64,000 bases of DNA, taken from positions 7,264-71,263 of the forward strand of contig DASZAJ010000007.1 of NCBI GenBank assembly GCA_035945215.1, read 5' to 3'. A program made the position numbers and the translations under genes. The notes beneath the pieces are model-generated. The model had not been told where the DNA came from, did not search any database, and worked only from the letters and a program-made list of their open reading frames with translations. This DNA is from Thermoplasmata archaeon (GTDB taxonomy: Archaea > Thermoplasmatota > Thermoplasmata > Lutacidiplasmatales > UBA184). Each line of letters starts with the position of its first letter. The stretch's first letter is position 1. Of the stretch, positions 1-57,064 are shown one piece after another.

Positions 1-680
1 GCGATCGAGATCTCCTGCTGCTCGCGGAAGTAGACCCGATTCTTTTCCACAGCGAGTTCCTTGTACCGTTCGAAGAACGGCTCCCGATCCAGGTTCCTCC
101 AACCCAGCGGTGAAACCTCCGGCCAGAGGTCGTACGGGATCTTCGGTTGAGACTTCCTGTACTTCGCCCCCTTGTGAGCCCGGTGGACGCGGCCCCTTCC
201 GCGGGCCTCGATGAAAATGTAGTGAGGGGCCAGTCCGTTGACGACGATCGAGTCGAGCATGGCTATCTTCGGCACGCAGAGTAGGGTCGCGATGCCGTTC
301 TTCCGCACGATCGAGAGGGCGCCGATCAGGCCGCTGAGCTCGTCGTCGCGCGCGCCCCTTCTCGAGAGCAGACCGAGAACCGATTCGTCGTACAGGGCTG
401 CAGCACCAGGAGGTTTCGTCTCATAGACTCGGTAGAGCTCGGGAGCCGAGAAAATCACATTGTCAAGACCGAACTGAGGGTCGAGGCGACGAGCGATGTT
501 GATCGCGAGTGAGGATTTCCCGACCCCGGTCTCTCTTCCATCGATGATGATGGTTATGGGCTGGGCGCGACGGCGCCGAGCCTCCAGGTGGGCCACGAAC
601 CTCTCAAAGTTCGCCTTGAGGTCCGGCACCCGTTCCGGCGCTACCCCATAAAACCCAAGAGCGTGAGGCTCAGTCTTCAT
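1..680 (-). CDS. P-loop NTPase (Zot / viral-plasmid ATPase-like); start is inside the window and the gene runs off the window start
   Basis: Hand translation of the minus strand from ATG at 680 gives MKTEPHALGFYGVAPERVPDLKANFERFVAHLEARRRRAQPITIIIDGRETGVGKSSLAINIARRL...LYDESVLGL. It has a Walker A (GRETGVGKSS) and a Walker B-like hhhhDE (LYDES). It is missing from the ORF track because it exits the window. GC looks lower than the rest of the window. Confidence 0.6.
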   Translation of the reverse strand, partial: MKTEPHALGFYGVAPERVPDLKANFERFVAHLEARRRRAQPITIIIDGRETGVGKSSLAINIARRLDPQFGLDNVIFSAPELYRVYETKPPGAAALYDESVLGLLSRRGARDDELSGLIGALSIVRKNGIATLLCVPKIAMLDSIVVNGLAPHYIFIEARGRGRVHRAHKGAKYRKSQPKIPYDLWPEVSPLGWRNLDREPFFERYKELAVEKNRVYFREQQEISI

Positions 681-710
681 CACTAACCCGAAGGATTCGG
701 CGTGGAATAA

Positions 711-1829
711 CTACCATCCATCCCAGCTGGGCTCTGCGTCTACAGGTGCGGGGTTGACGCAACGAACTTGTGCTCTGCCCAGATCGGCTTGAATGAATTC
801 GCCTCCAATCCCCATGGTCTCGAGCAAGACTGCCCGCCACGAACTAGCGTCCGACCATGAACCATCGTCGGGAGGAGGCTCGCCGCCCAGCCAATGAAGC
901 TCCCAACACTGGTCGACCGCGAAATGCCGCTCACACTCGGGGCACCACTGGCCCTCCGGTTGCTTCCAGAAGCGCAAGAGGGGCTGGTTGTAGCCGAATG
1001 TCCCGAACCAAGTCAGTACCTCGGTCGAGCGTAGGTCGGCAGAAGGCGAGATACCCCCTACGGACCCCATATCGATCAGCCGATCCTGGACTCGGTGCTT
1101 AGGAGTCAGTCTCGTTGCGTGCGAGAGACAATAGGCCAAAGTGGCGCACAAGGAGCGCCGAAGACCTAAGTTTCGGATTATCCAGTTAGAGCGCTTCCAT
1201 CTCGCGGGCGGAACGATCCATCCGTCCCCTAGGAGATGGAAATGGGGTCCCTCTACGCACAAACCCTCCCCATGCCAGTTGACTCGCAGCCCGTGGTAGA
1301 TCGCGCAACCGCCTCTGAATCCCCACTCCTTGGAGATCTTGTAGGCGCGGCGACGCAGCTGATTGTAACCGCCTCGGGTTTCTGGGAGGTCCCAGAGCTC
1401 TGGCGGAGGAGCGACTACGACGTGAATCAGCCCGACGGGATACGCGGCCCCGTCGAAAATTGGCGCGGAGTCGAACAGTTCCCAGAGCCGCCCCCAGCGT
1501 TTTTGCTTCCCTAGGATCTCGGCGCCTGCCTGTAGCCGTTCTGCCGCGTCAGCTACTGCCCGCGAGAGCCATCCTACCCGCCAGTGAGTCGCACAGTCAA
1601 ACCGGTGACAATCGAGACGGGTCAGTTTGTAATGGATCTCTCTGAACACTCGGTTGCGAGCGTCGTGGGCGATCCGCCGATAAGCGGTCGTGCGGCCGCA
1701 CGACGTTCCGTGGCCTGGAAGCTCAGCCGGGCCAAGCTGGCCGGAATCATCGAACGAGACACCAGAACGTGGACCCGAGGGATCCGCTTGAGAAAACGGC
1801 CGGACTGCCTCGAGCGCAGCGGCGCTCAC
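711..1829 (-). CDS. Replication-initiator / HUH-endonuclease-like protein of a mobile element
   Basis: The 372-aa ORF contains a HUH-like motif (PHFHLLGDGW) preceded by a Y-x3-K motif (RRAYKISKEW), plus a C-terminal Cys pair (CPECERHF). It lies between the zinc-finger and ATPase genes, next to the tRNA 3' end. Confidence 0.5.
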   Translation of the reverse strand: MSAAALEAVRPFSQADPSGPRSGVSFDDSGQLGPAELPGHGTSCGRTTAYRRIAHDARNRVFREIHYKLTRLDCHRFDCATHWRVGWLSRAVADAAERLQAGAEILGKQKRWGRLWELFDSAPIFDGAAYPVGLIHVVVAPPPELWDLPETRGGYNQLRRRAYKISKEWGFRGGCAIYHGLRVNWHGEGLCVEGPHFHLLGDGWIVPPARWKRSNWIIRNLGLRRSLCATLAYCLSHATRLTPKHRVQDRLIDMGSVGGISPSADLRSTEVLTWFGTFGYNQPLLRFWKQPEGQWCPECERHFAVDQCWELHWLGGEPPPDDGSWSDASSWRAVLLETMGIGGEFIQADLGRAQVRCVNPAPVDAEPSWDGW

Positions 1830-2062
1830 TGGCCGACACGGACCCAGCCGGCAGGCGGAGGGACGAGGCGGGCGATTGCCTCGAGGACGCGAAGGTGGTG
1901 AGCGACCTCGATGTGACGAACCAGGCGATCAATTTGCCCGCAGGCAACGAGGAACCTGCACAGAGGGCATCGGATCTTATGGTCCTCATCCTCGAGGATG
2001 TGGATAGTCCTGCCCGAAAGTAGCGATGCGGCGGGATCCCGCCCGTCTGTCACGGGCGCCAC
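1826..2062 (-). CDS. small C2H2-type zinc-finger protein
   Basis: The 78-aa protein has C-x2-C ... H-x4-H (CPLC...HIEVAHH). Its stop overlaps the Rep-like start (ATGA-type overlap), which suggests translational coupling. Confidence 0.5.
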   Translation of the reverse strand: MAPVTDGRDPAASLLSGRTIHILEDEDHKIRCPLCRFLVACGQIDRLVRHIEVAHHLRVLEAIARLVPPPAGWVRVGQ

Positions 2063-2268
2063 CCCGAGCTGAGGCTCTGCCCGCTGGTGGGGCGCGGGGA
2101 AGCCCCCGGTCGCCCGGGGGCCGAATGGGTTGGATCCTTATCGGTGGAGGACCGAGAAGGAGGGCGTTCCGCGAGACGTAGCGCTAGGTCGAGGAACGGC
2201 GGGTCGACTACCGGGTCGAATGGCTCCGGCCCGGATTCGGTCGATTTCGGGCATTCCGGCTGACGAAC

Positions 2269-2343
2269 CGGGCGTGGGGGGATTTGAACCCCCGACCGCC
2301 GGGTTAGGAACCCGGTGCCCTATCCAGACTAGGCTACACGCCC
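2269..2343 (-). tRNA. tRNA-Arg (anticodon CCU)
   Basis: The reverse complement reads GGGCGTGTAGCCTAGTCTGGATAGGGCACCGGGTTCCTAACCCGGCGGTCGGGGGTTCAAATCCCCCCACGCCCG. It has a 7-bp acceptor stem, a GGGGG/CCCCC T-stem with a TTCAAAT loop, and an anticodon stem CCGGG/CCCGG with loop TTCCTAA, giving anticodon CCT. No CCA is encoded. Confidence 0.85.
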
Positions 2344-2458: not shown

Positions 2459-3517
2459 TCAACTGGGTCCGGCCCGTCGAGGGAGGAGGCGATCGTACCG
2501 ATGGTCCACCCGGATCGGAAGCGAAGGTGCCGGCTCTTGGATGAGCTCAATGCCCGAGATCGCGTCTTGGAGTATCGGCATGACCGCGCGACGCGGCCCC
2601 CCTTCAGGCAGCTCGGGGGGACGCGGCCGGCCGGAAGCCCCCATCGCGCCGATGAGGACTCGCTCCGGGCTGACGGTGTACAGAAACGGGAACACTCCGG
2701 AATCGCGGACCAAGGTCTGAAACAGCTCTTCGGGTCGGAACCCGGCCTTCGGGGTGCCGGATATGAAGACGTACTGGTCGGCGGCATTCCCCCGGTACGA
2801 CGACAGCCGGGATGGATCTAGGAAGACCCGGTGGGTGATCCAGCCCCGCGCCACCAAGCGCTGCTGGGAGAACGGCAGGCCGAGGGGCCCGACCAACCGG
2901 CCCCCATCGCCGGTCGTGACGAACGGTCGGCCCAACAGCTCGCCGGCCGCCCACCGAACGTGTTCCGTGAGAGGGACGGGTGGCGCGGGGACCGCGCCGG
3001 CGGCCCCGCCGCCCCCCAGGCCGCGAGGGTACGCCACGGTGCCCAGGGTGCCGGAAAGGTGGGCCCAGACGCCTTCGAAATCGAAGTAGACGGGCACGCT
3101 CGCCCTTCGGAGATCGGCGACCACGGCCCCGGCGGAGCCCGCCAGATCCCGCCACCCGTCCCCCGACGCCAGGGTCTTCGCCGCCTCCTCGGTCCGGTGG
3201 AGGAACGTCCCGAGGACCGCCGGCGCGCCGCCGAGGAGCATCACGTTTCCCGGGTGGGCCGTCCAGCGACGCAGGAGCTCGTCGACCCGTTCGGCGAACG
3301 GACGGGCGATCAGGAACGTGGCGAACGAAAATCCGAGGCAATCCGGCTCGGGAACGTAGCGGTCCCGCAACCAGCCTTCGTCGTAGGCCCGACGTCGCGC
3401 CGCATGGTACGTGGAGCGGGGAAGACCGCTTCGGGCCAGCCGCTCCCGCTCCGGGGCGGCCGCCGAACCCAGCAGGACCGCGATGGTCTTGGCCTCGGCA
3501 TCGGTGAGGGCCCTCAT
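2459..3517 (-). CDS. hypothetical protein with N-terminal HTH-like region
   Basis: The 352-aa ORF has protein-like composition and consistently high GC at third positions. The N-terminus (AEAKTIAVLLG...GLPRSTYHAARRRAYDEGWL) looks like an HTH. The overlapping 412-aa ORF in another frame is Arg-rich and looks like junk. Confidence 0.5.
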   Translation of the reverse strand: MRALTDAEAKTIAVLLGSAAAPERERLARSGLPRSTYHAARRRAYDEGWLRDRYVPEPDCLGFSFATFLIARPFAERVDELLRRWTAHPGNVMLLGGAPAVLGTFLHRTEEAAKTLASGDGWRDLAGSAGAVVADLRRASVPVYFDFEGVWAHLSGTLGTVAYPRGLGGGGAAGAVPAPPVPLTEHVRWAAGELLGRPFVTTGDGGRLVGPLGLPFSQQRLVARGWITHRVFLDPSRLSSYRGNAADQYVFISGTPKAGFRPEELFQTLVRDSGVFPFLYTVSPERVLIGAMGASGRPRPPELPEGGPRRAVMPILQDAISGIELIQEPAPSLPIRVDHRYDRLLPRRAGPS

Positions 3518-3609: not shown

Positions 3610-5115
3610 GTGGGACGGAGGCAACACCAGGCTTCAGCGATGTTCGGGCGGGGACGGTCCCTCCTCGGAGGGCTGGTCGTAGGAATGTTCCTAGCGTACC
3701 TTCTCATCGCTCCGGGCGCGGTGGCAAGCGCCGCGCCGAACGCCGCCGCGAATGCCGGGCCCGCGGCGGGGACGACCCAATGGGCGTACGGCGGCGGGAG
3801 GTCCATCTCCGCGTCCGGGATCGCCGCGGGGGGAAACGCCACCTACAGTCTCTCCGCGACCTACGGTTGGAACACCGTCCTCTCCCAACAGAACGGATCC
3901 CATGGCTCGATCGAGGTCGAGGTCAATCGGACGGTGGGCGCGACCTTGACCGCCGAATACTGTCGGCCCAACTGCACCGCGGCCACCCGTTCGCTGAACA
4001 TCAGCGAGCGAGTGTGGGAGACCGTCGTAGCGTTCGCCAATTTCACTTCCAGCGCGACGGTCTACACCGCCGGCACCGCGGTCCCTGCGATCGGTCTCGA
4101 GAACTCGAGCATTCAGGAGAAGGCGAACCTCACGGAATCGGGGAATGCCGTGGTGAACACCCTCCACGGCAAAGTCACTGCCTCGGAGCAGTTGACCGTC
4201 GCATCGTCCGGCTCGGCGTCGGTCAGTTTCCAGCCGGCCCTCGGGTTGTTTCCCCTCGATCTGAGCCGGTCCCCGTGGAACTCGTCGGCCGCCTATTCGG
4301 CCACCGGTTCCTGGCTGGTGTCGACGTGGTTCGACTCGACCTCCTTCTTGGGGGTCCATCAGGCGGCGGCCCACCAATATCCGGGGGGTTTCGCGGGGAT
4401 CGGGGGCATCGTCACGCTGACCGGGTCCTCGTATGGCGCCGAGGAGTTGAACGGCGGGCTTCCCACGACCCAGGTCGGGATTGCGGTCACCGGACCGTTC
4501 ACCACGTGGGAAGGCTTCCTGCTGGTCCCGAACACCTCCGACCTGCTCGCGTCCAGCCAGGCACCCTGGTCCTCGAACTCGTGCGGGAGCCAGTTGGCGA
4601 GCACCCAGCTGATCGACCTCGACCACGGGCCCTCGTCCGGCCACTTCCCGGTCCGCGCCTCGGCCGCCCTCTACCAGCCCGGCGTTTCGGACACTGGGCC
4701 GGTCTCGCTGAACTCGAGGTTGACCACCGCGCTCGGAAGTTCCCCTCCGATCGGCAACGGCAGCGCGACCCCGACGGACGGCCCGGCCGCCTCGACGATC
4801 CAGGCCCAGCCCGAATCGGTGGCCACGGCCCAACAGAGTTCGCACTGCCTGATCGCGATCTGCGGGTCCGGTGCAGGCTCCTCGGTCCTCGGACGCGGCG
4901 TCTGGATCTTGGCCGGGGCCGCTGTCGCCGCCGTCTTGGTGGCGGCGCTCGTGATCGCCAAGCGACAGCCCCCCCGTCGGGATCCTCCATCCCGTAACGC
5001 CGCACTGTATCCGCCGGTCGGTCTTCGACCGCCCGCCCCGCTGCCGAAGGAAAATGGCAACGGCAAACCCATCGTCGGGCCAGACCCCACCGACCCGCTC
5101 GGCAACCTCTGGTAG
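3610..5115 (+). CDS. secreted surface glycoprotein (signal peptide, many N-x-S/T sequons, C-terminal TM anchor)
   Basis: The N-terminus carries a signal peptide (SLLGGLVVGMFLAYLLIAPGAVASA). The Ser/Thr/Asn/Gly-rich body has more than 15 NxS/T sequons. The C-terminal TM helix is WILAGAAVAAVLVAALVIA, followed by a Pro-rich tail. Confidence 0.7.
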   Translation: MGRRQHQASAMFGRGRSLLGGLVVGMFLAYLLIAPGAVASAAPNAAANAGPAAGTTQWAYGGGRSISASGIAAGGNATYSLSATYGWNTVLSQQNGSHGSIEVEVNRTVGATLTAEYCRPNCTAATRSLNISERVWETVVAFANFTSSATVYTAGTAVPAIGLENSSIQEKANLTESGNAVVNTLHGKVTASEQLTVASSGSASVSFQPALGLFPLDLSRSPWNSSAAYSATGSWLVSTWFDSTSFLGVHQAAAHQYPGGFAGIGGIVTLTGSSYGAEELNGGLPTTQVGIAVTGPFTTWEGFLLVPNTSDLLASSQAPWSSNSCGSQLASTQLIDLDHGPSSGHFPVRASAALYQPGVSDTGPVSLNSRLTTALGSSPPIGNGSATPTDGPAASTIQAQPESVATAQQSSHCLIAICGSGAGSSVLGRGVWILAGAAVAAVLVAALVIAKRQPPRRDPPSRNAALYPPVGLRPPAPLPKENGNGKPIVGPDPTDPLGNLW

Positions 5116-7708: not shown

Positions 7709-8533
7709 GTGGCGCGTTCTTCTGATTTGATGGTCCCACCTGACACCGCCCCGCTTACCCTGCCCGCCGGATCCTCGGTGCCCTCGGCCTCCCGTCCGGG
7801 CCGGACCCCGAACTTGGTCACCCCGGCCGTACGACGGGCGATCCTGCACCGGATGCTGATGTTCCGGCAAGCCTCCCTCGACCGGGTCGCGGCGATGACG
7901 GGAGCCTCGCCAGAGGCGCTGCGAGGCTTCCGTCAGGAGCTCTCGCATAGCGACCTTCCGGAGCGGCTCCTGCAACGGGGCGCGGGTCTCGCGTTCACGC
8001 GAGAGCTCCCGCAGGCGGGACTACTATACCTGCTCCTCCGCACGTTGCGCCCCCGTCGGATCGTCGAGACCGGTGTCCGGCCCGGATACTCGACGGCTTG
8101 GATGCTGGCGGCGCTCGAGCAGAACCGTCAGGGCGAGCTCTTTTCGATCGGTCCGGGCACCGTGGCCGGTCGGGCGGCAGGCGTGCCCATGGGTAGCGTA
8201 GGGGAGCTGGTCCCACCGCCGCTGCGGGCGCGTTGGACCCTGGTCCTCGGGAACTCGCAAGACCGGCTCGAAGAGGTGCTCGCCAAGGCCGGTCCCATCG
8301 ACCTGTTCTTCTCGGACAACGGACCCGACCTCGACCGCGCGCAGTGGGAGCTTCGTCGGGCTTGGAGTGCGATGGCCCCCGGCGGGGTCGTGGTGGCCCA
8401 TCACGTGGACGCGAATCCGGCGTGGGCCGAGTTCTGCCGCTGGCAGGGGTTGCCCACCCAGGTCCTCGATCCCGGCCCGCCCCCGATGGGGGCGCTGTCG
8501 GTCCGGACCGACCCTCGATCGCGATCGATCTAA
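7709..8533 (+). CDS. class I SAM-dependent (O-)methyltransferase
   Basis: It has the motifs IVETGVRPGYSTAWML, LVLGNSQDRL and DLFFSDNGPD. The true start may be downstream, at the internal MLMFRQ. Confidence 0.6.
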   Translation: MARSSDLMVPPDTAPLTLPAGSSVPSASRPGRTPNLVTPAVRRAILHRMLMFRQASLDRVAAMTGASPEALRGFRQELSHSDLPERLLQRGAGLAFTRELPQAGLLYLLLRTLRPRRIVETGVRPGYSTAWMLAALEQNRQGELFSIGPGTVAGRAAGVPMGSVGELVPPPLRARWTLVLGNSQDRLEEVLAKAGPIDLFFSDNGPDLDRAQWELRRAWSAMAPGGVVVAHHVDANPAWAEFCRWQGLPTQVLDPGPPPMGALSVRTDPRSRSI

Positions 8534-9048
8534 CGTTCGAGCTCTTCGACGAGGTGCTGGACCGACGGAAGGATCAACCGTTCGACCGCCATCCGGACCG
8601 CCCGCTCGGAACCGGGCAGCGCGAAGACGGGCTTGAGCTTCACGACGTAGAGTCCGGCCCGACTCAGCGTGGCCAGTGGCCCGACCTCGGCATAGCTGAG
8701 CGCCCGATAGATCTCGCCAAAACCGGGGAGCAGGCGACCGCCCATCCCCTCGAGGGCGTTGATGGTGAGGTCGCGGGAGCTCGCGCCGGTCCCCCCGACC
8801 GTGATGGCGATCTCAGCTTCACGACCCTCGAGCAGGGGTTCGAGCGCCTCGCGCACGTCGGCGACGGAGTTGGCCACGAGATGGTATCGGACGAGGTGGT
8901 GTCCGCTCGCGACGAGCAGGTCGCGCGCCAAGTGCCCCGAAGGGTCGTCCTCCTCGGTGTGGGTATCGGAGACGGATAGGACCACGACGCCGAGCGAACG
9001 GGTACCCCCGAGGTGGTGGCGTCGGGGTGGGGAATCCGCTTCGGTCAC
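8530..9048 (-). CDS. moaB: molybdenum cofactor biosynthesis protein MoaB/MogA family
   Basis: Motifs: LGVVVLSVSDTHTEEDDPSGHL, ITVGGTGASSRD and GMGGRLLPGFGE. I place the start at GTG 9048, overlapping the moaC stop (GTGA). The rest of the long ORF upstream would run into moaC. Confidence 0.7.
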   Translation of the reverse strand: MTEADSPPRRHHLGGTRSLGVVVLSVSDTHTEEDDPSGHLARDLLVASGHHLVRYHLVANSVADVREALEPLLEGREAEIAITVGGTGASSRDLTINALEGMGGRLLPGFGEIYRALSYAEVGPLATLSRAGLYVVKLKPVFALPGSERAVRMAVERLILPSVQHLVEELER

Positions 9049-9494
9049 GCCGGTCCCTCCGCCGCCTTGCGCTTCTCGGTGAGGCGGACGGGGCCCAATC
9101 GCACGTTGGGATACAATCCCCGTTCGTCCTTTTCGAGGTACTTCACCATGTCCCAAACCGTGAGGAGGGCGACGGTAGCTCCGACGAGGGCCTCCATCTC
9201 GACTCCCGTGCGGCCCATCGTCTCCGCTTCCGCCACCACCTCGACGGCGCGCGCGCCCGGCCGCACGTCGACCCGGCTCCCCGTAAGTGGGACGATATGG
9301 CAATGGGGGATCAACTCGGAGGTCCGCTTCATCGCCTGCAGGCCCGCGATCTCGGCCGCCGAGATCGGATCGCCCTTCCCGACCGTGCGGGCGCCGATCG
9401 CGGCCAAGGTCGGGTTCGAAACAGTGAGCTCGCCGACCGCCCGGGCCCTTCGGAACACCGGCGGCTTGGCGTCGACGGAACGCTGTCGGGCCAT
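9045..9494 (-). CDS. moaC: cyclic pyranopterin monophosphate synthase accessory protein MoaC
   Basis: 149 aa. The regions VGELTVSNPTLAAIGARTVGKGD, TSELIPHCHIVPLT and GVEMEALVGATVALLTVWDMVK match MoaC. Confidence 0.85.
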   Translation of the reverse strand: MARQRSVDAKPPVFRRARAVGELTVSNPTLAAIGARTVGKGDPISAAEIAGLQAMKRTSELIPHCHIVPLTGSRVDVRPGARAVEVVAEAETMGRTGVEMEALVGATVALLTVWDMVKYLEKDERGLYPNVRLGPVRLTEKRKAAEGPA

Positions 9495-9497
9495 CGG

Positions 9498-10481
9498 CTA
9501 CGGCCTCGCCGGCCGCAAGGAGCCAAGGTGCGCCAGGACCGTTTCCATTTGGAGCCGTTCGGAAGCGCCCATGGCCAATCGAAAGTCGACCTCGCCGAGG
9601 AGTTCGACGATCCGGATCTTCATGGCGTCGGGCACGCTGGACTCCGGAAGATCGGGCACGTAGGCGTGGATCGACCGGAGGATATCCTCCCCGCTGGCCC
9701 CCCGGTCAGTGAAAAGCCGATAGAGCCGGTCCCGCGCCGCGAGGAAATCGGGGCGTAGCGCCAGTTCGAGCATCTCCTTGATCTCATCGCGCATCGGGAT
9801 CGTCGTGCATCGCCGGACGGTCTCGAGGGTTACGGGGTTCGCGAACGTCGCGGTCAGCTGCAGCGTATTCGTGGCCCGGCGGAGATCGCCCGCGGCGGCG
9901 ACGAGGATCGCCTCGAGCGCATCCGCGTCCAGGCGCACCCCCTCACCCTTGGCGACGCGGTCGAGCTGACCTTTCACCTGCGCGGGCGTGAACGCGCGGA
10001 ACCGGAACACCGCGCATCGGGATTGGATGGGGTCGATGATCCGGGAGGAGTAGTTGCAGGAGAGTACGAACCGACACGCTCCTGAGTATCGTTCCATCAT
10101 CCGGCGCAGCGACGCCTGCGCCTCGGCGGTCAGATTGTCCGCCTCGTCCAGGAAGAGGAGCTTGAATCCCACCCCCCCGATCGGCGCGCTGCGCGCATAC
10201 TCCTTGATCGTCGTCCGTACGGTCTCGATCCCCCGCTCGTCCGAGGCATTGAGCTCGAGGAAATTCTGCCGCCACTCCTCGCCGAACAGGTCCCGTGCCA
10301 AGGCCAGCGCCGCGGTGGTCTTTCCCGTGCCGGGGGGTCCGGCGAACAATAGGTGGGGGAGCGAGTGCTTCTGCGCGTAGGCCTGCAGGAGCGGGACGAT
10401 CCCCTCCTGGCCCACCATCTCCGAGAGGGTCCGAGGGCGGTATTTCTCCACCCAAACAGCGGACGGTCGAGCCTCCCCCAT
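9498..10481 (-). CDS. rfcS: replication factor C small subunit
   Basis: The gene starts at internal ATG 10481 (MGEARPSAVWVEKYRP). The Walker A is PHLLFAGPPGTGKTT. The DEAD-type box (LLFLDEADNLTAEAQ), a SRC-type region and CNYSSRIIDPIQSRC follow. 327 aa is the typical length. Confidence 0.9.
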   Translation of the reverse strand: MGEARPSAVWVEKYRPRTLSEMVGQEGIVPLLQAYAQKHSLPHLLFAGPPGTGKTTAALALARDLFGEEWRQNFLELNASDERGIETVRTTIKEYARSAPIGGVGFKLLFLDEADNLTAEAQASLRRMMERYSGACRFVLSCNYSSRIIDPIQSRCAVFRFRAFTPAQVKGQLDRVAKGEGVRLDADALEAILVAAAGDLRRATNTLQLTATFANPVTLETVRRCTTIPMRDEIKEMLELALRPDFLAARDRLYRLFTDRGASGEDILRSIHAYVPDLPESSVPDAMKIRIVELLGEVDFRLAMGASERLQMETVLAHLGSLRPARP

Positions 10482-10549
10482 GGCGCACCGACTCCGGGGA
10501 CGATGCCCCGCAGAAAAGCGTATTGGAAGCTCGGGGGCAGCGTTTCGGT

Positions 10550-10810
10550 TTACGGACGCCCAAACCCCGAATCCAGCAGGTCCTCTTCCTCTGTGACATG
10601 GCGGGCCAGCGCCTCCCAAACCAACCGCCAGTACTGGCCCAGGGCCTGGCGATTGCCCCCATGGCCGTCCCGGCGTACGATCTCGCGGAGCGCTCGAAGC
10701 TCGAGGATCGATTCGCCGAATTGTTCGTGGTCGGCTAGCAGCCTTTCGGCTCGACGGCGGCTGGCCGGATGGGCGTCCATGGAGGTCGCCAGCCAAAGAT
10801 CGAGCCGCAT
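10550..10810 (-). CDS. hemerythrin/HHE-like small protein, start uncertain
   Basis: The C-terminal 87 aa (MRLDLWLATSMDAHPASRRRAERLLADHEQFGESILELRAL...ARHVTEEEDLL) carry H...HE and HxxxE spacing. The N-terminal 130 aa of the track ORF are Arg/Pro-rich and would overlap the neighbouring gene. Confidence 0.35.
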   Translation of the reverse strand: MRLDLWLATSMDAHPASRRRAERLLADHEQFGESILELRALREIVRRDGHGGNRQALGQYWRLVWEALARHVTEEEDLLDSGFGRP

Positions 10811-11022
10811 CCGGTGCCGTTCGAAGGCCGACGCCAGCTCCCGGGCGGCTCGGTCGAGCTCATCGGCCGGGATGGGCTCCAGGTGAACGAGGTCGTCCGG
10901 CAGCCGGCGCCAGGTGGCGAGGAGTCGGCGGATCCGCTCGATCTCCTCGGGCGCCTCGCGCCGGAGGACCTGAGCGCCGTGAGCTCCGGGTGGTGCCCGG
11001 TCGGGGCGCACCGTGGGGGTGG

Positions 11023-11439
11023 TCACGGATCGAATGCCGGCCGCGCCGGGGTCCGATGGGATCGCAGAGCGCCCCACCCTGCCGTCAGGGTCCCCAAGAT
11101 CAGGTAGACAACAGCGAGCGTGGCGGACGCACCGGGAAGATAGAGCAGGGATCGGTTCGCGGCGAAGAGCACGAAACCCGCGAGGATCATTGAGGCGGGT
11201 ACCAACCACATCCCGATCGCGAAGTAGGCGATGGCTCCCCCGACGATGAACGTCACGGCCAGCAAGAACGCGAGGTCCAACGCCTCGGATCGGTGGCCCT
11301 CGGCCAGGATCAGCAATCCCCCGGCGACGATCGCCGCCGCTCCGACGATCAGCGGGAGGGCGACCGACCGATCGTACAGCACGATCGCCGTCGCCCGATC
11401 ATCCTCCCCACCCGGCGGTGGACCGATCGATTCGCTCAT
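11023..11439 (-). CDS. small membrane protein (4 predicted TM helices)
   Basis: 138 aa with hydrophobic helices LPLIVGAAAIVAGGLLIL, LAFLLAVTFIVGGAIAYFAIGMWLV, ILAGFVLFAA and TLAVVYLILGTLTAGW. Confidence 0.55.
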   Translation of the reverse strand: MSESIGPPPGGEDDRATAIVLYDRSVALPLIVGAAAIVAGGLLILAEGHRSEALDLAFLLAVTFIVGGAIAYFAIGMWLVPASMILAGFVLFAANRSLLYLPGASATLAVVYLILGTLTAGWGALRSHRTPARPAFDP

Positions 11440-11471
11440 TCGGACCGGACCGCACCGTCGGACGATTCTTT

Positions 11472-12296
11472 ATGCTACTCGGGGTTCGCCGCGACGGTAG
11501 GAAAGAGATGCGAGAGCTCCTGGCCCACGTCCAGTTCCGCGGCATCATACGGGAGCGGTCCGTGGAGCCGTTCCTCGCCCTTCTGCGGACCCTCCGGGAA
11601 AGGCGTCGGGTCCGGGGGGTTCTCCTCGACATCTCGAGCGGGGGCGGGGGCGACATTCCGTCGACCGACCTGCACCTGGCGATCAAGCGACTGGACGCGG
11701 TGAAGCCCGTCGTCGCGAGCATCGGCTCGATCGGGGCCTCCGGCGCCTATATGGCGGCCCTGGGCGCCCGGAAGCTGTTTGCCTATCCGGACTCGGCCGT
11801 CGGATCGATCGGTGTCGTGGTCCCACACGTCGCCGTCCAGAAGCTCCTCGACAAGCTCGGCATCCAAGTGGACCTGCTCCACGAGGGCCGCCACAAGGAT
11901 GCCTATCAGGGGCTTCGACCGCTCTCCGAGGAGGAGCGGGCGAAACTGCAGGCGGTGGCCCACGATTCATACGAGTCGTTCGTGGCGATGGTCGCGCGGG
12001 AGCGACATCGGCCGTTGGACGAGATCCGCGCGCTGGCGACCGGGGAGTTTTGGAGTGGCACGCGGGCACTCGAGCTCGGCCTGATCGACGCCCTCGGCGA
12101 TCGCGAAACCGCCCTCGAGGAACTCGCCCGTATGACCTCGGTCCCCGCTCGGAAGACCCTCCGAGTGGCTCCGCCGCGACCGTTCCTCGAGCGCTTCTTC
12201 CAAAGCGGCCTGTCGCTTGCGCCCGGGCTGGTCGTTGGGCTCCGGGACGCCATCGAGGATTCGATACTCGAGCTGAGCGGGCCGGGGCGCCTGTAG
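11472..12296 (+). CDS. sppA: signal peptide peptidase SppA (S49 family)
   Basis: Features: GVLLDISSGGGGDIPSTDL, VVASIGSIGASGAYMAALGARKLFAYPDSAVGSIGVV and a Ser/Lys dyad region. The start is either ATG 11472 or ATG 11508. Confidence 0.8.
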   Translation: MLLGVRRDGRKEMRELLAHVQFRGIIRERSVEPFLALLRTLRERRRVRGVLLDISSGGGGDIPSTDLHLAIKRLDAVKPVVASIGSIGASGAYMAALGARKLFAYPDSAVGSIGVVVPHVAVQKLLDKLGIQVDLLHEGRHKDAYQGLRPLSEEERAKLQAVAHDSYESFVAMVARERHRPLDEIRALATGEFWSGTRALELGLIDALGDRETALEELARMTSVPARKTLRVAPPRPFLERFFQSGLSLAPGLVVGLRDAIEDSILELSGPGRL

Positions 12297-12310
12297 CGCC
12301 CGTCCGCATC

Positions 12311-12319
12311 GATAAATAG
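12311..12319 (+). promoter_or_regulatory. TATA-like box (gataaatag) about 29 nt upstream of the Sec61-beta ATG
   Basis: It is an AT-rich octamer in an otherwise GC-rich spacer. The spacing fits a leaderless archaeal transcript. Confidence 0.4.
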
Positions 12320-12343
12320 CCCGGCGGGGCTGCTGGATCGGCG

Positions 12344-12505
12344 ATGCCCGACAGCAGCAAACGCGGATTCTCCTCCGCGGCCGGACTCATCCAGTATTAC
12401 GACATGGAAGAGTCTCGGGCGCTCAAGATCGACCCGTACATCGTGATCATCCTCGGCCTCGGGGCTGCCGTGGTCGTAGAGATCCTCAGCTGGAAGGTCG
12501 TCTGA
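12344..12505 (+). CDS. preprotein translocase subunit Sec61-beta (SecG-type), unannotated small ORF
   Basis: Hand translation gives MPDSSKRGFSSAAGLIQYYDMEESRALKIDPYIVIILGLGAAVVVEILSWKVV (53 aa). It has the conserved GLIRYY-like motif and a single C-terminal TM. It falls below the 60-aa cutoff of the ORF track. Confidence 0.75.
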   Translation: MPDSSKRGFSSAAGLIQYYDMEESRALKIDPYIVIILGLGAAVVVEILSWKVV

Positions 12506-12509
12506 TCCC

Positions 12510-12920
12510 TCACTCGCCGAGAACCTTCACGATCACCCGCTTCCGGCGCTGGCCGTCGAATTCGGCGTAGAAGACCTGCTCCCACGGCCCGAGGTCCAGC
12601 CGGCCCTGGGTCACCGGGAGGACGACTTGGTGGCCCAGCAGGAGGTTCTTCAGGTGGGCGTCGCCATTCGATTCGCCCGTGCGGTGGTGGGCGTAGTCCA
12701 TTTCCGGGACCAAACGTGCGGCCCAGCGCTCGATGTCCTCGAGGAGACCCGCCTCGTTATCGTTCACGTAGACGGCCGCGGTGATGTGCATCGCCGAGAC
12801 CAGGCAGAGACCCTCCCGGATGCCACTTCTTTCGACGATGTCGGCGACGGCATTCGTGAGGTTGACGAACCCCCGGTGGCCGGGGGTGTGCATCCACAGG
12901 TACTCGGTCGCCGCCTTCAT
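12510..12920 (-). CDS. YjbQ/UPF0047 family (secondary thiamine-phosphate synthase-like) protein
   Basis: 136 aa. The regions [36 protein letters not shown] and [15 protein letters not shown] match the YjbQ family. Confidence 0.8.
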
Positions 12921-12932
12921 CGCGGTCGGCGG

Positions 12933-13898
12933 TCAGGCGATCCCCTCGATCGGGGTGGGACCCAGGCCCGGCAGATACCGGTCCTCGTCCGGCCGGCCGA
13001 GGAGCAGCACTTTCGACTCGGGGGACTCATCGAGCACCGTGAGGCCGGTCTGGCGGGCGAGCGCCCGCGCGAATCCGGCGATCTCGGCATGCTCGGGCAC
13101 GTGGGCCCGACCCAGCCGCTGGCGGGACTTACCCATGTACACGTATCCTTTCGGCTCGATGAAGTTCGGGCGGGCCCGCTCATCCAGCGCGGCATACTGG
13201 TCGACCCAACCAAGGTTCCAGCCCCGCACCAAGGTGTGGCGAACGACCCGACGCGTTCGCAACCCGCGAACGATCTCCAGGGATTCGAGCAGCCGCTCCC
13301 AAGCGTCCGGTTGGGCCGGCATGGTCAATCGCCGAAAGACCTCGGGATTCGGGGCAGTTACCGACACGTAGAGTTGGGTCGGCAGAGGGTCCATATGCCG
13401 GAGGGCGTCCGGATTCGTCCCGTTGGTCACCAGGAAGGTGGTGATCCCCCGCGCCTCGCAAAGGCTGAGGAATCGGTTCATCTTCGGGTACAACGTGGGT
13501 TCCCCCGTCAGGGAGATCGCCACGTGGCGGGGGGACTGGGACGCCTCCCACCGATCGCGCGGGATCGTCGGATCGCCTTTGAAGCCGGAGAGGATCCTCT
13601 GTTGCGCCTCGATCGACCGGTCCAGAAGGGTCTCCGGATCGTCGAATTCCGGCATCAATTCGTCGTTCTCCCAGCCCTGGTTCCGCCAGCAGAACCGGCA
13701 ATGCAAATTGCACGAGTCGATCGCCGGCGACATCTGGAGGCACCGATGGCTTTCGATCCCGTAGAAGCGTCCCTTGTAGCAGTCCCGACCTTTCGTCAAC
13801 GACTGTCGGGTCCAATAGCATAACTTGACGGCGCTGTGCCGACCGACCAGCTGATAGCCTTGGCCGACAAGTTCCCCGGCCAGGTCCTGGTCCCCCAT
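12933..13898 (-). CDS. taw1: tRNA 4-demethylwyosine synthase (Taw1/TYW1), radical SAM
   Basis: The N-terminus reads HSAVKLCYWTRQSL. The radical-SAM Cys motif is CNLHCRFCWR. 321 aa is the archaeal Taw1 length. Confidence 0.85.
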   Translation of the reverse strand: MGDQDLAGELVGQGYQLVGRHSAVKLCYWTRQSLTKGRDCYKGRFYGIESHRCLQMSPAIDSCNLHCRFCWRNQGWENDELMPEFDDPETLLDRSIEAQQRILSGFKGDPTIPRDRWEASQSPRHVAISLTGEPTLYPKMNRFLSLCEARGITTFLVTNGTNPDALRHMDPLPTQLYVSVTAPNPEVFRRLTMPAQPDAWERLLESLEIVRGLRTRRVVRHTLVRGWNLGWVDQYAALDERARPNFIEPKGYVYMGKSRQRLGRAHVPEHAEIAGFARALARQTGLTVLDESPESKVLLLGRPDEDRYLPGLGPTPIEGIA

Positions 13899-14090: not shown

Positions 14091-14414
14091 ATGGTCGAGC
14101 AACTGCGTCCGGAGGATGTCGCTCGTCGACTCTCCGAGCATCCCGAGGGGATCGTTCTGCTCGACGTGCGCGAGGATTGGGAGAGGACCACGGCGCGGAT
14201 CGAACCCTCCCTGCACATTCCCATGCAACAGGTCCCCGATCGCTTGGGCGAACTGCCCAAGCGGGGGCTGATCGTGGTGTATTGCCATTCCGGCGTCCGT
14301 TCGGCGATGGTGGCGGCGTACCTCGCTGGCCACGGGTTCCGCTCCGTGGCCAACCTCTCGGGGGGAATCGACGCCTGGTCCACGGAGCTGGACGCGACCA
14401 TCCCGCGATACTAG
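14091..14414 (+). CDS. rhodanese-domain sulfurtransferase (single domain)
   Basis: The catalytic loop is VVYCHSGVRSAMVAAYL. There is an ATG at 14091. The upstream in-frame extension is Pro/Arg-rich and unlikely to be coding. Confidence 0.75.
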   Translation: MVEQLRPEDVARRLSEHPEGIVLLDVREDWERTTARIEPSLHIPMQQVPDRLGELPKRGLIVVYCHSGVRSAMVAAYLAGHGFRSVANLSGGIDAWSTELDATIPRY

Positions 14415-14424
14415 GGGCGGCCTC

Positions 14425-15177
14425 GTGTCCGACTCGCTCGAATCCCTCCGTCGAGAAGTGATCGGTTGTGGGCGATGCCCCCGACTCGTCGCATACCGTC
14501 AGCGTGTGGCGATCGAAAAGAAGCGCGAGTTCCGGGGGCAGGAGTACTGGGGGCGGCCGGTCCCCGGGTTCGGGGATCCGCAGGCCGCGCTCGTCCTGGT
14601 CGGCCTCGCCCCGGCCGCGCATGGCTCGAACCGGACCGGCCGCGTATTCACCGGGGACCGTTCGGCCGCCTTCCTCGTGCGCGCCCTGTACGAGGCGGGA
14701 TTTTCCAATCAACCGACATCCGTGGGTCGGGGGGACGGGCTGCGCTACACGGGGGTGTACGTGACGGCGGCCGTGCGATGCGTCCCACCGGACAACCGGC
14801 CCTCGCCGGCGGAGCTCGACCACTGCCTGCCCTACCTCGAGCGCGAGCTGCGCCTGCTTCCGAACGCCCGCGCGGTGCTCGCGCTCGGGGGGTTCGCTTG
14901 GGAGGCCACCCTGAGGGCCCTGGCCGCCGTGTACGGGTCCCCCCTTCGCAAGGTGCCGTTCGCGCACGGGCTGGCCCTGCCCCTCGGGCCGGGGCGGCCG
15001 ATCGCGTGGGCGTCCTATCATCCAAGTCCCCAGAACACGAACACCGGACGGTTGACCGCCCCGATGTTGATCGGACTCCTCCGTCAGATCCGCGGTTCTT
15101 GGACCGGGGGCCCCCGGCTCGGAGGTTCCCCGCCCGCATCCCTCGGTCCCGCGAGGGCGTCGGGCCGCCAAAGGTAA
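14425..15177 (+). CDS. uracil-DNA glycosylase, family 4/5 (UdgB-like, GLAPAAHG motif)
   Basis: The N-terminus has the Fe-S Cys cluster CGRCPRL. Motif A is LVGLAPAAHG (family-5-like). HPSPQN lies near the C-terminus. Confidence 0.8.
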   Translation: MSDSLESLRREVIGCGRCPRLVAYRQRVAIEKKREFRGQEYWGRPVPGFGDPQAALVLVGLAPAAHGSNRTGRVFTGDRSAAFLVRALYEAGFSNQPTSVGRGDGLRYTGVYVTAAVRCVPPDNRPSPAELDHCLPYLERELRLLPNARAVLALGGFAWEATLRALAAVYGSPLRKVPFAHGLALPLGPGRPIAWASYHPSPQNTNTGRLTAPMLIGLLRQIRGSWTGGPRLGGSPPASLGPARASGRQR

Positions 15178-15205
15178 TCCGAGGGCCGTCACCTCCGCGG
15201 CCCGG

Positions 15206-17158
15206 ATGGCCGACTTCGAGCTCGTCGAGCGGGACGGCCTCGCGCGCATCGGTCGACTGCCCACCCCGCATGGGGTCGTCGAGACCCCGGCGCTGCTGCC
15301 GGTGGTCCACCCGGATCCGGCGCGCCAGCCGATCCCCCCAAAGGAGATCCGGACCCGGTTCGGGTTGGGTGCGGTGATCACCAGTGCGTACATCACCTGG
15401 CGGACGCCCCCGCTGCGGGAGGTCGCCGAATCTCGCGGCATTCACGGACTGCTCGATTTCGATGGGCCGGTGATGACCGACTCGGGGGCTTTCCAACAAC
15501 ACGCCTACGGGCACATCGAGGTGTCCGACGAGGCGATCTTTTCGTTCGAACGGCGGATCGGGGCGGACATCGCCACCGTCCTCGACATCTTCACCGAACC
15601 CGACGCGCGCGCCGACGAAGCGCTGCGGGCCCTGGAGGAAACGAGCGCCCGCGCCAAGCGGGCCCGGGAGCTCCACAAGGGGCTGCTGGCCGTCCCAGTC
15701 CAGGGGGGCCTCCACGCAACGCTCCGGTACCGCTCGGCTTGTGAGGCGTCGGAGATCGGGGACGTGCTGGCGGTCGGAGGGGTGGTGCCCCTCATGGAGC
15801 GCTACCGGTTCGCCGACCTGGCGAGGGTTCTGATCGCGGCGCGGCCCGGCTTGGCGCCGGGGGGCGTGGTGCACCTCTTCGGGAGCGGGCACCCGATGGC
15901 CTTTGCCTTCGCCGCTCTCTTCGGGGTCGATCTGTTCGACTCGTCCTCGTACCTAAAGTTCGCCCGGCGGGGGGCGCTCATGTTCCCGGACGGGACGGTC
16001 GCGCTCGAGGAAATCCGGGAACCGATCTGCCGATGCGCCCTGTGTGAGCGGCTCCCGCTCCACGAGGTCGCCCGCCTGGATCGCCCCGAACAACTGGTTC
16101 GGATCGCGGAACACAATCTGCTCCAGTGTGCCCAAGAGCTCAGCCAAGTACGCCAGGCGATCCGGGACGGCACGCTCTGGGAGCTCGCCGAGCGACGGGC
16201 CGCGGGCCACCCGGCGTTGCAAGCCGGCATGCGGACGGTGGTTCGGGGGGTACGGACGTTCCTCCCCACGGAACCCGAGAGTCGCCGCGCGTTCCGGGTG
16301 GTCGGGGCCACGAGCGGCCTTCGACCCTCCGTCATCCGATTCCTCGCCCAGGTCGCCCGTTGGAAGGCCGGCCGCGGCCCGTACCGGGACCATCCCAGGG
16401 TCCCGCTCACCCCGGCCGGGATCGGCCGGACACCCACCCAGACCCGTTCGGGGACGGTCCTCCACTGGGCGGTGAACACGCCGATCGGCGCGGTCCCCCT
16501 CGAGCTGACGGAGATCTATCCGATCGGCTGCTACCTGGGACTCGAGGAATTCGAAAGCGCGGCGGATCAAGCCGCCCCCGCCACGCCGGAGGAGGCGCCG
16601 GACGTCGATCCGGGCCGGGAGTACATCGCCGAGTGGACCCACCGGCAGATCCGGGGCCTCCTGGAGTGGGTCCACGGTTCCGAAGGGGCGGACGCCCTCC
16701 AGCCGGACGGGCTTGTCGGGGAGCGGTCGCGGCGGACCGGCCGGCTGCGCCGTGTGCTGCGCGACGGCGAGCGGCTCTTCACCCTAGGAAACGATGGGAT
16801 CCCCCGGCCGACGTGGAAGGGGGCCGAGCTCGTCCATCGAACCCGCCCGTTTCCCGCGCAGCGGATCATCGCCGACGCCGACGCCGTGCCATTTGTCGAG
16901 GCGGGGCGCAGTCTGTTCTCCCGGTTCGTTCGCGGGGGCGACTCTTCCCTGGTTCCCGGCGCGAGCGCGCTCGTCGTCGACGGAGCCGACCGCCTCCTCG
17001 CGGTGGGGCGCCTCGTCCTGGCGCCGCCCGAGATGGGTCGGGTCCCCCGGGCCGTCGCGGTCCGGATCGTCGCGCATCGGCACCGTCCCGACGGAGAAGC
17101 GGACCCGGAACCCGCCAGGTCGGGCGACCCCGGCTCGTCGGAGGCCGGTGAGCTTTAA
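15206..17158 (+). CDS. tgtA: archaeosine tRNA-guanine transglycosylase (ArcTGT) with C-terminal PUA region
   Basis: The N-terminus matches a TGT TIM barrel (GRLPTPHGVVETPALLPVV...VMTDSGAFQ). The Zn site is CRCALCE. The 650-aa length includes the extra C-terminal domains. Confidence 0.85.
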   Translation: MADFELVERDGLARIGRLPTPHGVVETPALLPVVHPDPARQPIPPKEIRTRFGLGAVITSAYITWRTPPLREVAESRGIHGLLDFDGPVMTDSGAFQQHAYGHIEVSDEAIFSFERRIGADIATVLDIFTEPDARADEALRALEETSARAKRARELHKGLLAVPVQGGLHATLRYRSACEASEIGDVLAVGGVVPLMERYRFADLARVLIAARPGLAPGGVVHLFGSGHPMAFAFAALFGVDLFDSSSYLKFARRGALMFPDGTVALEEIREPICRCALCERLPLHEVARLDRPEQLVRIAEHNLLQCAQELSQVRQAIRDGTLWELAERRAAGHPALQAGMRTVVRGVRTFLPTEPESRRAFRVVGATSGLRPSVIRFLAQVARWKAGRGPYRDHPRVPLTPAGIGRTPTQTRSGTVLHWAVNTPIGAVPLELTEIYPIGCYLGLEEFESAADQAAPATPEEAPDVDPGREYIAEWTHRQIRGLLEWVHGSEGADALQPDGLVGERSRRTGRLRRVLRDGERLFTLGNDGIPRPTWKGAELVHRTRPFPAQRIIADADAVPFVEAGRSLFSRFVRGGDSSLVPGASALVVDGADRLLAVGRLVLAPPEMGRVPRAVAVRIVAHRHRPDGEADPEPARSGDPGSSEAGEL

Positions 17159-41481: not shown

Positions 41482-42546
41482 ATGCTCGCGGCCCCGTCGA
41501 TGGCCCCGGGAGGGTGGAAACAGTTCGGAACCCGCCGGATCGGGCGAGCGGTCCTGATGGCTGTGGCCATCTTGACCCTGGTCGGGAGCCTCGTCTACCT
41601 CGGCCCGTATGTGGCGATCGCGGTCCTGTTGCTGTTCGGGGCCGCCGTACCGATCTATCTCGGCTGGAAGCGGCCCCGCCAGCTCGCCATCGCCGGCCTG
41701 GCGGTTCTCCTGATCAGTGCCCCGATCTTTTCGGTCATCTACGCGAATGAACTGCGCCTTCCGAGCCCGTCGGCGAGTTCGAACCCGGCGAGCCCGTACG
41801 GCAACGGCGGGGCCGTCATCCAGGACGCGAAGGTGACCCCGTTCGACGGGGCCCAGGGGGGGACCTACAATTTCAGCGCCTCGATCGACCCGCAGTACCT
41901 GCCCCAAAGAGAGCAGGCCCGCTTCTTGACGCTGTACATCTCCGACTGCCCCGGGGCCACCGGGAATCGATCGCCCAATTGTCCGTCGGGGTATGCCTTC
42001 TTCGAGCTCAATCACACCTTCGCGTCGAATCTCTCCACCGCGTCGACGGTAACCTTCGCCCGATCGCTGCCCGGGGCCGACATCTGGTGGTGGAACCTCG
42101 CGCTCGCGATATCGAACAGCTCGTCACCGAAGAACCTCACGTGGGTCTGGCTCTACACCAACGGGAGCTACTCGGGGGTGGAAGGGCCGGTCTCCGGCGA
42201 TTTCCTATCGACCACGGAGCTCATCCTGCCCGCGGCGTACGAGGTGATCTTCATCTATCCGGGCCTCGTCTTTTTCATCGGCATTCTCGTCTACGTCCTG
42301 CTGAAGAACCGCGAGAGCGCTCGGAGGGCCCGAGCCCCGGGCTCCCTACCGCCTTCCGGGGGGACGGCCGAGCCACCTTCCGGGACCACCGAGAAGACGA
42401 TGCCGACCCCGGCAGGAAAGCAGGAGAGCGCCTGCCCGAACTGCGGCGCCGTCGTCTACCCAAATGAGCGAGCGTGCTGGAAGTGTGGCAAGAGCCTGGT
42501 CGTTCCGGTGGCCGCCGCCAACGAGCCGCTTGCGTCGACGAAGTGA
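41482..42546 (+). CDS. polytopic membrane glycoprotein with C-terminal cytoplasmic zinc ribbon
   Basis: It has N-terminal TM helices, an extracellular segment with sequons NFS, NRS, NHT, NLS, NSS, NLT and NGS, a further TM helix (VIFIYPGLVFFIGILVYVLL), and then CPNCGAVVYPNERACWKCG. Confidence 0.6.
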   Translation: MLAAPSMAPGGWKQFGTRRIGRAVLMAVAILTLVGSLVYLGPYVAIAVLLLFGAAVPIYLGWKRPRQLAIAGLAVLLISAPIFSVIYANELRLPSPSASSNPASPYGNGGAVIQDAKVTPFDGAQGGTYNFSASIDPQYLPQREQARFLTLYISDCPGATGNRSPNCPSGYAFFELNHTFASNLSTASTVTFARSLPGADIWWWNLALAISNSSSPKNLTWVWLYTNGSYSGVEGPVSGDFLSTTELILPAAYEVIFIYPGLVFFIGILVYVLLKNRESARRARAPGSLPPSGGTAEPPSGTTEKTMPTPAGKQESACPNCGAVVYPNERACWKCGKSLVVPVAAANEPLASTK

Positions 42547-42784
42547 TCGGTCGAGAGGCGCCCGCTCTCCCGCACGTGTCGTATCGTCCGACGGAGCTTT
42601 TGCCTCACGGGGCAGGGATCCGGACCGAAGCGCCGAAGAGCGCGGGAAAGCGACCTCGCGCGGCAAGTTATACTGCGGGTTCCGCCCGGGGCGGACGAAT
42701 TCGCGACCTTCGGGTTTGTTCGACACGACGATTCACCTCGTGTTCCAACCTGAGCGATGGCTCCGACGCCATCGGACGCCTTGG

Positions 42785-42792
42785 TTTAAGTA
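42785..42792 (+). promoter_or_regulatory. TATA-like box (tttaagta) about 30 nt upstream of the RHH gene start
   Basis: It is an AT-rich patch (ggtttaagtagaggaaatttccatag) in the 274-nt spacer. Confidence 0.35.
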
Positions 42793-57060: not shown

Positions 57061-57064
57061 GGAA

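Follow-up and report, generated by a model that had tools for sequence, protein, structure and literature searches.

The stretch of DNA analysed here (the window) comprises 64,000 nucleotides of contig DASZAJ010000007.1, from a metagenome-assembled genome (MAG) that NCBI lists as a Thermoplasmata archaeon (locus tags VGX00_*). The host chromosome has a G+C content (GC) of about 69% and carries the archaeal marks aRF1, archaeosine tRNA-guanine transglycosylase (TGT), Kae1 and Tyw1. The sole transfer RNA (tRNA) gene found in the window by ARAGORN is tRNA-Arg(CCT), at 2269-2343 on the minus strand, with its 3' end (2269) toward the window start. Three minus-strand open reading frames (ORFs) lie 3' of it: one of 78 codons (1826-2062), one of 372 codons (711-1829) with the features of an HUH-type rolling-circle replication initiator (Rep), and one that starts at 680, encodes a P-loop ATPase and runs off the window. 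A first-pass annotation, made by reading the sequence, had placed these genes directly downstream of the tRNA, in agreement with the tRNA and ORF calls, and had proposed an integrated plasmid or provirus. We reach a similar view: window 1-2254 is probably one end, the end nearest the tRNA, of a plasmid-like mobile element that has integrated here. That foreign DNA occupies the 3' end of the tRNA follows from its deviating composition, its absence from syntenic relatives, complete relatives with the same layout, and assembly breaks at the junction. Plasmid or provirus integration at tRNA genes is routine, and in this sense the basic finding is ordinary; the proteins encoded by the element and the history of its ATPase gene are of wider interest.

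The three ORFs were thought to be translationally coupled. This holds for the first pair, in which the stop of the 78-aa ORF and the start of Rep share bases in a GTGA overlap, but not for Rep and the ATPase gene, which are 30 nt apart. For Rep, the GTG start at 1829 (372 aa) is preferred over a 312-aa call because the shorter call would exclude an LPGHG motif conserved in the family, and His55 as well, both encoded ahead of its start.

Motifs, a family alignment and structure searches all point to an HUH-type Rep, as had been suspected. The motifs are IHVVVAPP (containing His136), His179, GPHFHLLGDGW (His196 and His198) and TLAYCLSHA (Tyr233), and they are accompanied by the cysteines of a zinc ribbon (C74/C79/C82 and C296/C299) that is split between the N- and C-terminal parts of the protein. 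In an alignment of 49 members, C74, C79, H136, H179, H196, H198, Y233, C296 and C299 are invariant, and the motifs read HVVVSPP, FHxxR, GPHFHxxGxGW and TAxYxLSHA family-wide. Both histidines of the HUH motif (H196-F-H198) are thus conserved throughout. Tyr233, the single conserved tyrosine of the family, lies C-terminal to the HUH motif in a helix predicted at 227-236, and is predicted from this position and its invariance to be catalytic. Searches with the structural model returned as top matches SIRV1 Rep (ORF119), pMV158 RepB, Helraiser, the Reps of CRESS-DNA viruses, geminiviruses and nanoviruses, and microvirus Rep/VP4. As in solved HUH Reps, the HUH motif would lie on a beta strand and the tyrosine in the next helix of a core that may resemble an RNA recognition motif (RRM). 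Unlike them, the window Rep has no significant sequence similarity to any solved HUH Rep, adds the invariant His179 and a zinc ribbon built from N- and C-terminal cysteines, and lacks a fused superfamily 3 helicase (S3H).

This family is not covered by the curated libraries searched. Rep matched no Pfam model (Rep_1, Rep_2, Rep_trans, Viral_Rep, RepSA and Y2_Tnp included), NCBIfam model or PHROG, and the 49 relatives are equally unmatched in these libraries save for sporadic zinc-ribbon matches. No tblastn match was found in the phage (INPHARED) or plasmid (PLSDB) collections and none in IMG/VR with the Rep profile; searching the PDB by sequence with the window proteins gave just spurious zinc-finger or P-loop matches. 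A word-indexed search with Rep recovered two proteins only, the 312-aa call from a Logan assembly (100% identical) and P0002 (32% identity). In contrast to this sparse yield, a profile search of 1.84 billion cluster representatives, in which clusters are defined at 50% identity, found 709 clusters at E<=0.001, of which 310 were at E<=1e-10. The broad alignment (A2) is too divergent for deriving search patterns. Since the family is widespread yet outside Pfam, NCBIfam and PHROGs, a profile for it would annotate many mobile elements that now appear as "hypothetical".

Rep relatives are encoded at 35 metagenome loci, and 10 of these are circular contigs of 1578, 1864, 1963, 2033, 2147, 2684, 3950, 4383, 4440 and 5295 bp. 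In nine of them circularity is indicated because the ends overlap (by 41, 55, 77, 99 or 127 nt) or the whole replicon is present twice, and in the tenth (L014) by an imperfect end repeat only (168/188 positions). Half of the circles (L017, L025, L028, L033 and L014) are 1.6-2.1 kb long and carry Rep as the near-sole gene, one of them at 254x coverage; the others (L031, L021, L022, L023 and L008) span 2.7-5.3 kb. Both low-GC (37-45%) and high-GC (67-68%) backgrounds are represented. Given the conserved motifs and the circles on which Rep stands nearly alone, the 372-aa protein is, to judge from its sequence, a replication initiator of small circular replicons, most likely by the rolling-circle mode. 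A k-mer comparison of the regions upstream of the Rep genes revealed no conserved origin motif. On the 4-5 kb circles, Rep is joined by a number of small proteins that are membrane-like or rich in Ser/Thr, and these replicons may be very small viruses instead of plasmids.

Other members of the family sit in chromosomes. The clearest case is L010, a complete 4.7-kb element that runs from tRNA-Ile(GAT)/attL (att, attachment site) through Rep, two ORFs (184 and 268 aa) and a Phage_integrase protein (31 bits) to attR. The latter repeats the tRNA from its anticodon stem through its 3' end, together with the trailer, and differs in the T stem by a compensatory change. The layout of L010 at the tRNA matches that at the window tRNA. 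Its tRNA-Ile locus may have been a repeated target of integration: immediately before the tRNA (8100-9467) lies a possible tyrosine recombinase, recognised by motif reading only and with no Pfam match, and just past attR (14228-15561) are a resolvase-like fragment and a partial paralogue of the element integrase. The P0002 contig is ordered Rep, six small ORFs, a Phage_integrase gene and host genes. Two further elements have entered tRNA-Arg(CCT) itself. In the 252-kb contig L019, a 4-kb element (9719-13808) bounded by Rep and integrase is inserted in the 5' half of the tRNA and has displaced a 32-nt tRNA 5' fragment (9719-9750). An 11-kb element (L034 1-11139 / L035 5284-5359) with Rep and integrase (Phage_integrase, 23.7 bits) occupies the same 5' half, and a 23-nt repeat of the 5' end of the tRNA delimits it. 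Targeting of the 5' half of a tRNA gene is less usual than targeting of the 3' half, and these sister elements are oppositely oriented to the window element relative to tRNA-Arg(CCT). Taken together, the contigs indicate that the Rep family is repeatedly carried by tRNA-integrating elements. With at least 709 clusters, it appears to drive both the 1.6-5.3 kb circles and small elements that integrate at tRNA genes, and to do so in low-GC organisms as well as in Thermoplasmata.

The block is missing from syntenic relatives. Gene order in L019 follows window 10741-2480, with aRF1, a secreted protein and the 352-aa gene beside the tRNA, and tRNA-Arg(CCT) is kept beside the same host gene in L019, L034 and L035. 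At the tRNA 3' flank, L019 and L035 have a YVTN-repeat surface protein and no counterpart of any of the three window ORFs. Conservation of the three proteins in synteny in related chromosomes had been named in the first-pass annotation as an observation that would speak against integration; the flank differs in these relatives.

Composition sets the block apart as well. GC is 0.621 (62.1%) in 1-2268 and 0.688 (68.8%) elsewhere in the window, a gap of 6.6 points; an impression by eye of about 10 points had the direction right and the size too large. The block lies below all 594 of the 594 host windows of equal length (2268 nt; z = -3.5), and its tetranucleotide distance to the host reaches z = +5.9 relative to the host's own spread, so that both of the comparisons recommended in the first-pass annotation deviate. 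At third codon positions, GC (GC3) is 0.66-0.76 in the three ORFs and 0.83-0.88 in host genes.

Evidence on the junction came from independent Logan assemblies (k = 31) of runs of the same study and consists of contig ends, not reads. A 52.8-kb host contig (L048, run SRR12347823) terminates at window 2255, and the element contigs L003 (SRR12347823) and L002 (SRR12347822) both begin at window 2284. The overlap of host and element contigs is exactly 30 nt, or k-1, as is expected of unitigs meeting at a branching node of the de Bruijn graph. These 30 nt (2255-2284) comprise the final 16 nt of the tRNA and 14 nt of trailer. A second host contig (L049, SRR12347822) stops at 2301, within the tRNA. 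It follows from the breaks at 2255 and 2284 that the sequence below 2255 has at least one alternative in these populations, perhaps the unoccupied site or else the distant copy of att. From the contig ends, the outer edge of the att core would lie at 2254|2255, 14 nt past the tRNA.

A mechanism can be proposed on this basis. The free form of the element would be a small circular replicon, replicated as a rolling circle from a nick made by the HUH Rep, in which His196 and His198, probably with His136 or His179, would bind the metal and Tyr233 would make the covalent link to DNA. Entry would have occurred by site-specific recombination between attP of the element and the 3' part of tRNA-Arg(CCT), with the junction between 2255 and about 2300. 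By analogy with its relatives, the agent may be a tyrosine integrase encoded at the far end. The element adjoins the 3' end of the tRNA gene, which is intact, and would have rebuilt that end on integration. The foreign composition, the place of Rep in its family, the occurrence of that family on circular replicons and in tRNA-integrated elements, the ATPase homology and the assembly breaks are observed directly; that the window element has an integrase and a distal att site, replicates as a rolling circle and is still mobile is inferred.

The third ORF (1-680, minus strand) supplies the N-terminal 226 of about 300 codons of an AAA+/ASCE P-loop ATPase of the type implicated in spindle-shaped-virus morphogenesis. 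It carries Walker A (GRETGVGKSS) and Walker B (LYDES), and both motifs are invariant in the family. The first-pass annotation had called it a Zot-like P-loop ATPase: the P-loop stands, and the resemblance to Zot is unsupported, as no match to PF05707 appeared even at E<=1 and the fold is a generic AAA+/RecA-like one. The structural model (pLDDT 86) matches AAA+ and RecA-like ATPases about equally. No Pfam model matched the protein, PHROGs and NCBIfam yielded no meaningful match to it, and the PHROG matches of its relatives are to "DnaA-like" AAA+ families. Similarity was found instead to ORF1 of BLv25, both by tblastn (34% identity over 140 aa, E = 2e-10) and by hhalign between the ATPase family and ORF1 (probability 98.6%, E = 5.6e-16, 155 columns). 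These sequence comparisons identify the ATPase, over its P-loop domain, as a homologue of the morphogenesis ATPase of this spindle-shaped virus (the BLv25 ORF1/His1 type). Full-length relatives end in a C2H2-like finger, which would lie off-window in the present case. In P0003 the finger spans residues ~245-270 (C-x2-C-x12-H-x3-C/H) and has weak PDB matches to designed or consensus zinc-finger proteins (E = 1.6e-4). Scanning IMG/VR with the ATPase profile gave no relatives, and PLSDB gave one weak match only, on a Natrinema plasmid.

Six contigs (L005, L006, L043, L045, L046 and L047) share a conserved module of genes on one strand that closes with the ATPase. Before it come large glycoprotein-like proteins (700-980 aa, with C-terminal anchors), a hydrophobic protein of about 100 aa, and proteins of about 520 and 240 aa. 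A serine recombinase follows. In L045 the module lies within a region of more than 20 kb that also encodes a DUF87 ATPase and a tyrosine integrase. The module has no Pfam annotation, and the hydrophobic protein has no similarity to the BLv25 major capsid protein. The contigs look like Thermoplasmata proviruses, and the module probably marks an undescribed group of them, spindle-shaped or pleomorphic. An ATPase gene preceded by a plasmid Rep occurs solely in the window and in L002/L003.

The window ATPase gene is a mosaic. In alignment A6, window 625-2284 is the sequence of L002/L003, window 1-603 is that of the provirus contig L047 with 1 mismatch (L047 was reached through P0183, a cluster member), and the switch occurs within a 21-nt stretch common to the two ATPase versions (604-624). 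L002 continues past the switch with sequence of the type of P0004, a 90% identical ATPase paralogue (VGX00_01415) on another contig of the same MAG, 332 kb long. P0004 is the reciprocal mosaic, with L047-type sequence in its first 20 residues and L002-type thereafter. L003 terminates on the last shared base of the 21-nt stretch, which argues that both continuations are present in the SRR12347823 reads. The population may be polymorphic for a genuine crossover between the two elements; otherwise, two paralogues were exchanged in the MAG. The adjacency of Rep and ATPase stands in either case, as it is seen in L002 and L003. If the crossover is real, the ATPase gene downstream of Rep would have recombined with a near-identical provirus gene in the same population. 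To the left of the window, the sequence is probably the content of L047 after the ATPase: a 73-aa ORF, a resolvase, a ParB-like protein and a P-loop protein of 650-713 aa. With a mosaic ATPase and its reciprocal partner in one MAG, exchange of genes between two mobile elements, or rearrangement of the chromosome by them, can be studied in a specific case that is open to testing.

Several observations weigh against integration of a plasmid-like element. A repeat search in the window found the tRNA 3' segment in single copy across 64 kb, and no integrase was detected in the window; the lack of a second copy is expected if the far end lies off-window. The window ends within the ATPase gene, and L047, the proxy for the left flank, has neither a tyrosine integrase nor an att copy within 4.4 kb and carries instead the serine recombinase, ParB-like protein and P-loop protein. 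L002/L003 aside, the ATPase is absent from all other Rep-bearing loci. Finally, the assembly breaks could reflect strain variation around the tRNA and not the presence or absence of an element. A rival reading is that the three ORFs are ordinary host genes whose lower GC is local variation. Other 1-kb windows do dip to 0.647 GC, but all host windows of 2268 nt have a higher GC than the block, the ORFs are absent from syntenic relatives, and their families are found on circular contigs (Rep) and in proviruses (ATPase); we regard this explanation as highly improbable. It is also very unlikely that the block is a transposon, with Rep as its HUH transposase (IS91, ISCR or Helitron type). IS91-family transposases do pair a zinc-binding motif with an HUH domain, a combination that is found here, but Rep matches neither Y2_Tnp nor Zn_Tnp_IS91 of Pfam and has one conserved tyrosine only. 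Moreover, it is the main or only gene on 1.6-2.1 kb circles, including the one at 254x, and the tRNA-half repeats and tyrosine integrases of its integrated relatives denote site-specific integration and not transposition.

Two further proposals concern the sequence left of the switch point and the kind of element this is. On the first, mis-assembly would have joined 1-603 to the Rep element at a short repeat, so that everything left of about 604 belongs to a provirus elsewhere and the true element continues with P0004-type sequence. The change from L002-type sequence right of 624 to L047-type left of 604 with just 21 nt shared, the exactly reciprocal structure of P0004, which is the pattern of a wrongly resolved repeat, and the P0004-type continuation of the independent L002 assembly would all be accounted for. 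However, assemblers usually work with k-mers longer than 21 nt, and the end of L003 on the last shared base indicates more than one continuation after the Rep-type N-terminus in SRR12347823. An assembly error is unlikely in our view, and even if it had occurred it would alter only the sequence left of 604, because L002/L003 confirm Rep and ATPase beside the tRNA. A different proposal refines the preferred reading. The element could be an integrated virus satellite of the pSSVx/SRCE kind: a rolling-circle plasmid that retains, from its helper virus, the morphogenesis ATPase alone, so that a co-resident Thermoplasmata provirus can package it, the identical ATPase segment reflecting recent recombination between satellite and helper. 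SRCEs, which pair a plasmid-type replication protein (often a rolling-circle HUH Rep) with a homologue of the spindle-virus AAA+ morphogenesis ATPase, have themselves been proposed as satellites (bioRxiv 10.1101/2025.02.15.638363). The ATPase that elsewhere closes a virus-like module in six contigs follows a plasmid Rep here, it is homologous by sequence to the BLv25 morphogenesis ATPase, and both the paralogue P0004 in the same MAG and the near-identity of 1-603 to L047 speak for this reading. On the other hand, the element runs off the window, which makes the loss of capsid and spike genes an assumption; past the switch point the contig may simply run on into provirus DNA; and other Rep-family elements have no ATPase. 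We therefore treat a satellite as a tentative possibility, with the balance tilted somewhat against it. It is a shade less probable again that the window holds the first integrated virus satellite recognised in Thermoplasmata, a plasmid in tRNA-Arg(CCT), built on an HUH Rep family unmatched in the curated libraries searched, that keeps the ATPase of a helper provirus and exchanges it by homologous recombination. If so, the reciprocal ATPase mosaic would record a satellite-helper crossover that rearranged the host chromosome.

According to the preprint on SRCEs, the archaeal satellites on record before it were pSSVi and pSSVx alone; of the pattern formed by pSSVx, SRCEs and pL6, packaging by a helper spindle-shaped virus has been shown for pSSVx and is otherwise proposed (bioRxiv 10.1101/2025.02.15.638363). 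The window element resembles this group in that it pairs a Rep with an ATPase homologous to BLv25 ORF1, the reference ATPase of the group, and in the co-resident provirus with a 90-100% identical ATPase. It differs from SRCEs in its host, which is a member of the Thermoplasmata and not of the Halobacteria or Sulfolobales, and in being integrated at a tRNA and not a free circle. Its Rep also matched no Pfam, NCBIfam or PHROG model and no INPHARED or PLSDB entry. The combination of Rep with a spindle-virus-type ATPase would extend the pSSVx/SRCE pattern to another archaeal phylum and to the integrated state.

Small archaeal elements that enter tRNA genes by means of tyrosine recombinases are a second point of reference; examples are the cryptic integrated elements and proviruses that have been catalogued for Thaumarchaeota (PMC6563490). 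Like such elements, the one in the window abuts a tRNA 3' end, and its relatives in L010, L019 and L034 show a tRNA-half repeat with a distal integrase and a proximal Rep. In contrast to them, its integrase and second att site would lie off-window.

A search against the pleolipovirus Rep and ORF8-ATPase families had been suggested, and the general logic of an HUH Rep with a morphogenesis nucleoside triphosphatase is indeed shared with HRPV-1. The L005 provirus also has a comparable gene order: a small membrane protein, an anchored protein of about 550 aa, more ORFs and the ATPase. Kinship was nevertheless rejected as a candidate, since hhalign detected no homology to HRPV-1 for either protein: the probability was 0.7% for the ATPase family against VP8 and 0.4% for Rep against ORF1, with the HUH motif alone aligned. 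Provirus module proteins had no tblastn match to any pleolipovirus.

The remaining features of the element are minor. The 78-aa ORF (1826-2062, minus strand) was first described as a C2H2 zinc-finger protein. A Cys/His pattern is present (C32-x2-C35-x14-H50-x4-H55), with a spacer of 14 residues compared with 12 in the C-x2-4-C-x12-H-x3-5-H motif, but profile matches (Pfam with zf-C2H2, PHROG and NCBIfam) and homologues (among 5.8 billion proteins) are both lacking. Gene callers chose an 84-aa ORF on the opposite strand (1769-2023, plus strand), also without homologues, in L002 and L003. For these reasons the 78-aa ORF is unproven as a gene and is kept as a candidate only. Between the tRNA and this ORF lies a non-coding leader (2063-2254, minus strand) with a perfect 8-bp GC hairpin at 2102-2121 (GCCCCCGG-TCGC-CCGGGGGC). 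A scan for promoters and terminators was uninformative, as was the DNA fold of the leader (z-score only -1.65); the hairpin is listed as a candidate promoter, regulatory site or origin, without functional claim.

On the other side of the tRNA, two genes belong to the host. The gene adjoining the tRNA (2459-3517, minus strand) encodes a 352-aa protein with no Pfam match, is 51% identical in L019 and is kept in synteny also in L034. The next (3610-5115, plus strand) encodes a 501-aa secreted protein with a C-terminal anchor and no Pfam match, syntenic in L019 at 34% identity. Both are lineage-specific host genes, outside the element. Further along the window, additional patches of low GC (0.647-0.668) at 42000-43000, 52000-55000 and 57000-64000 may be foreign or strand-biased, and at 60-64 kb, but not elsewhere, the AT skew is strongly negative (-0.26 to -0.31).

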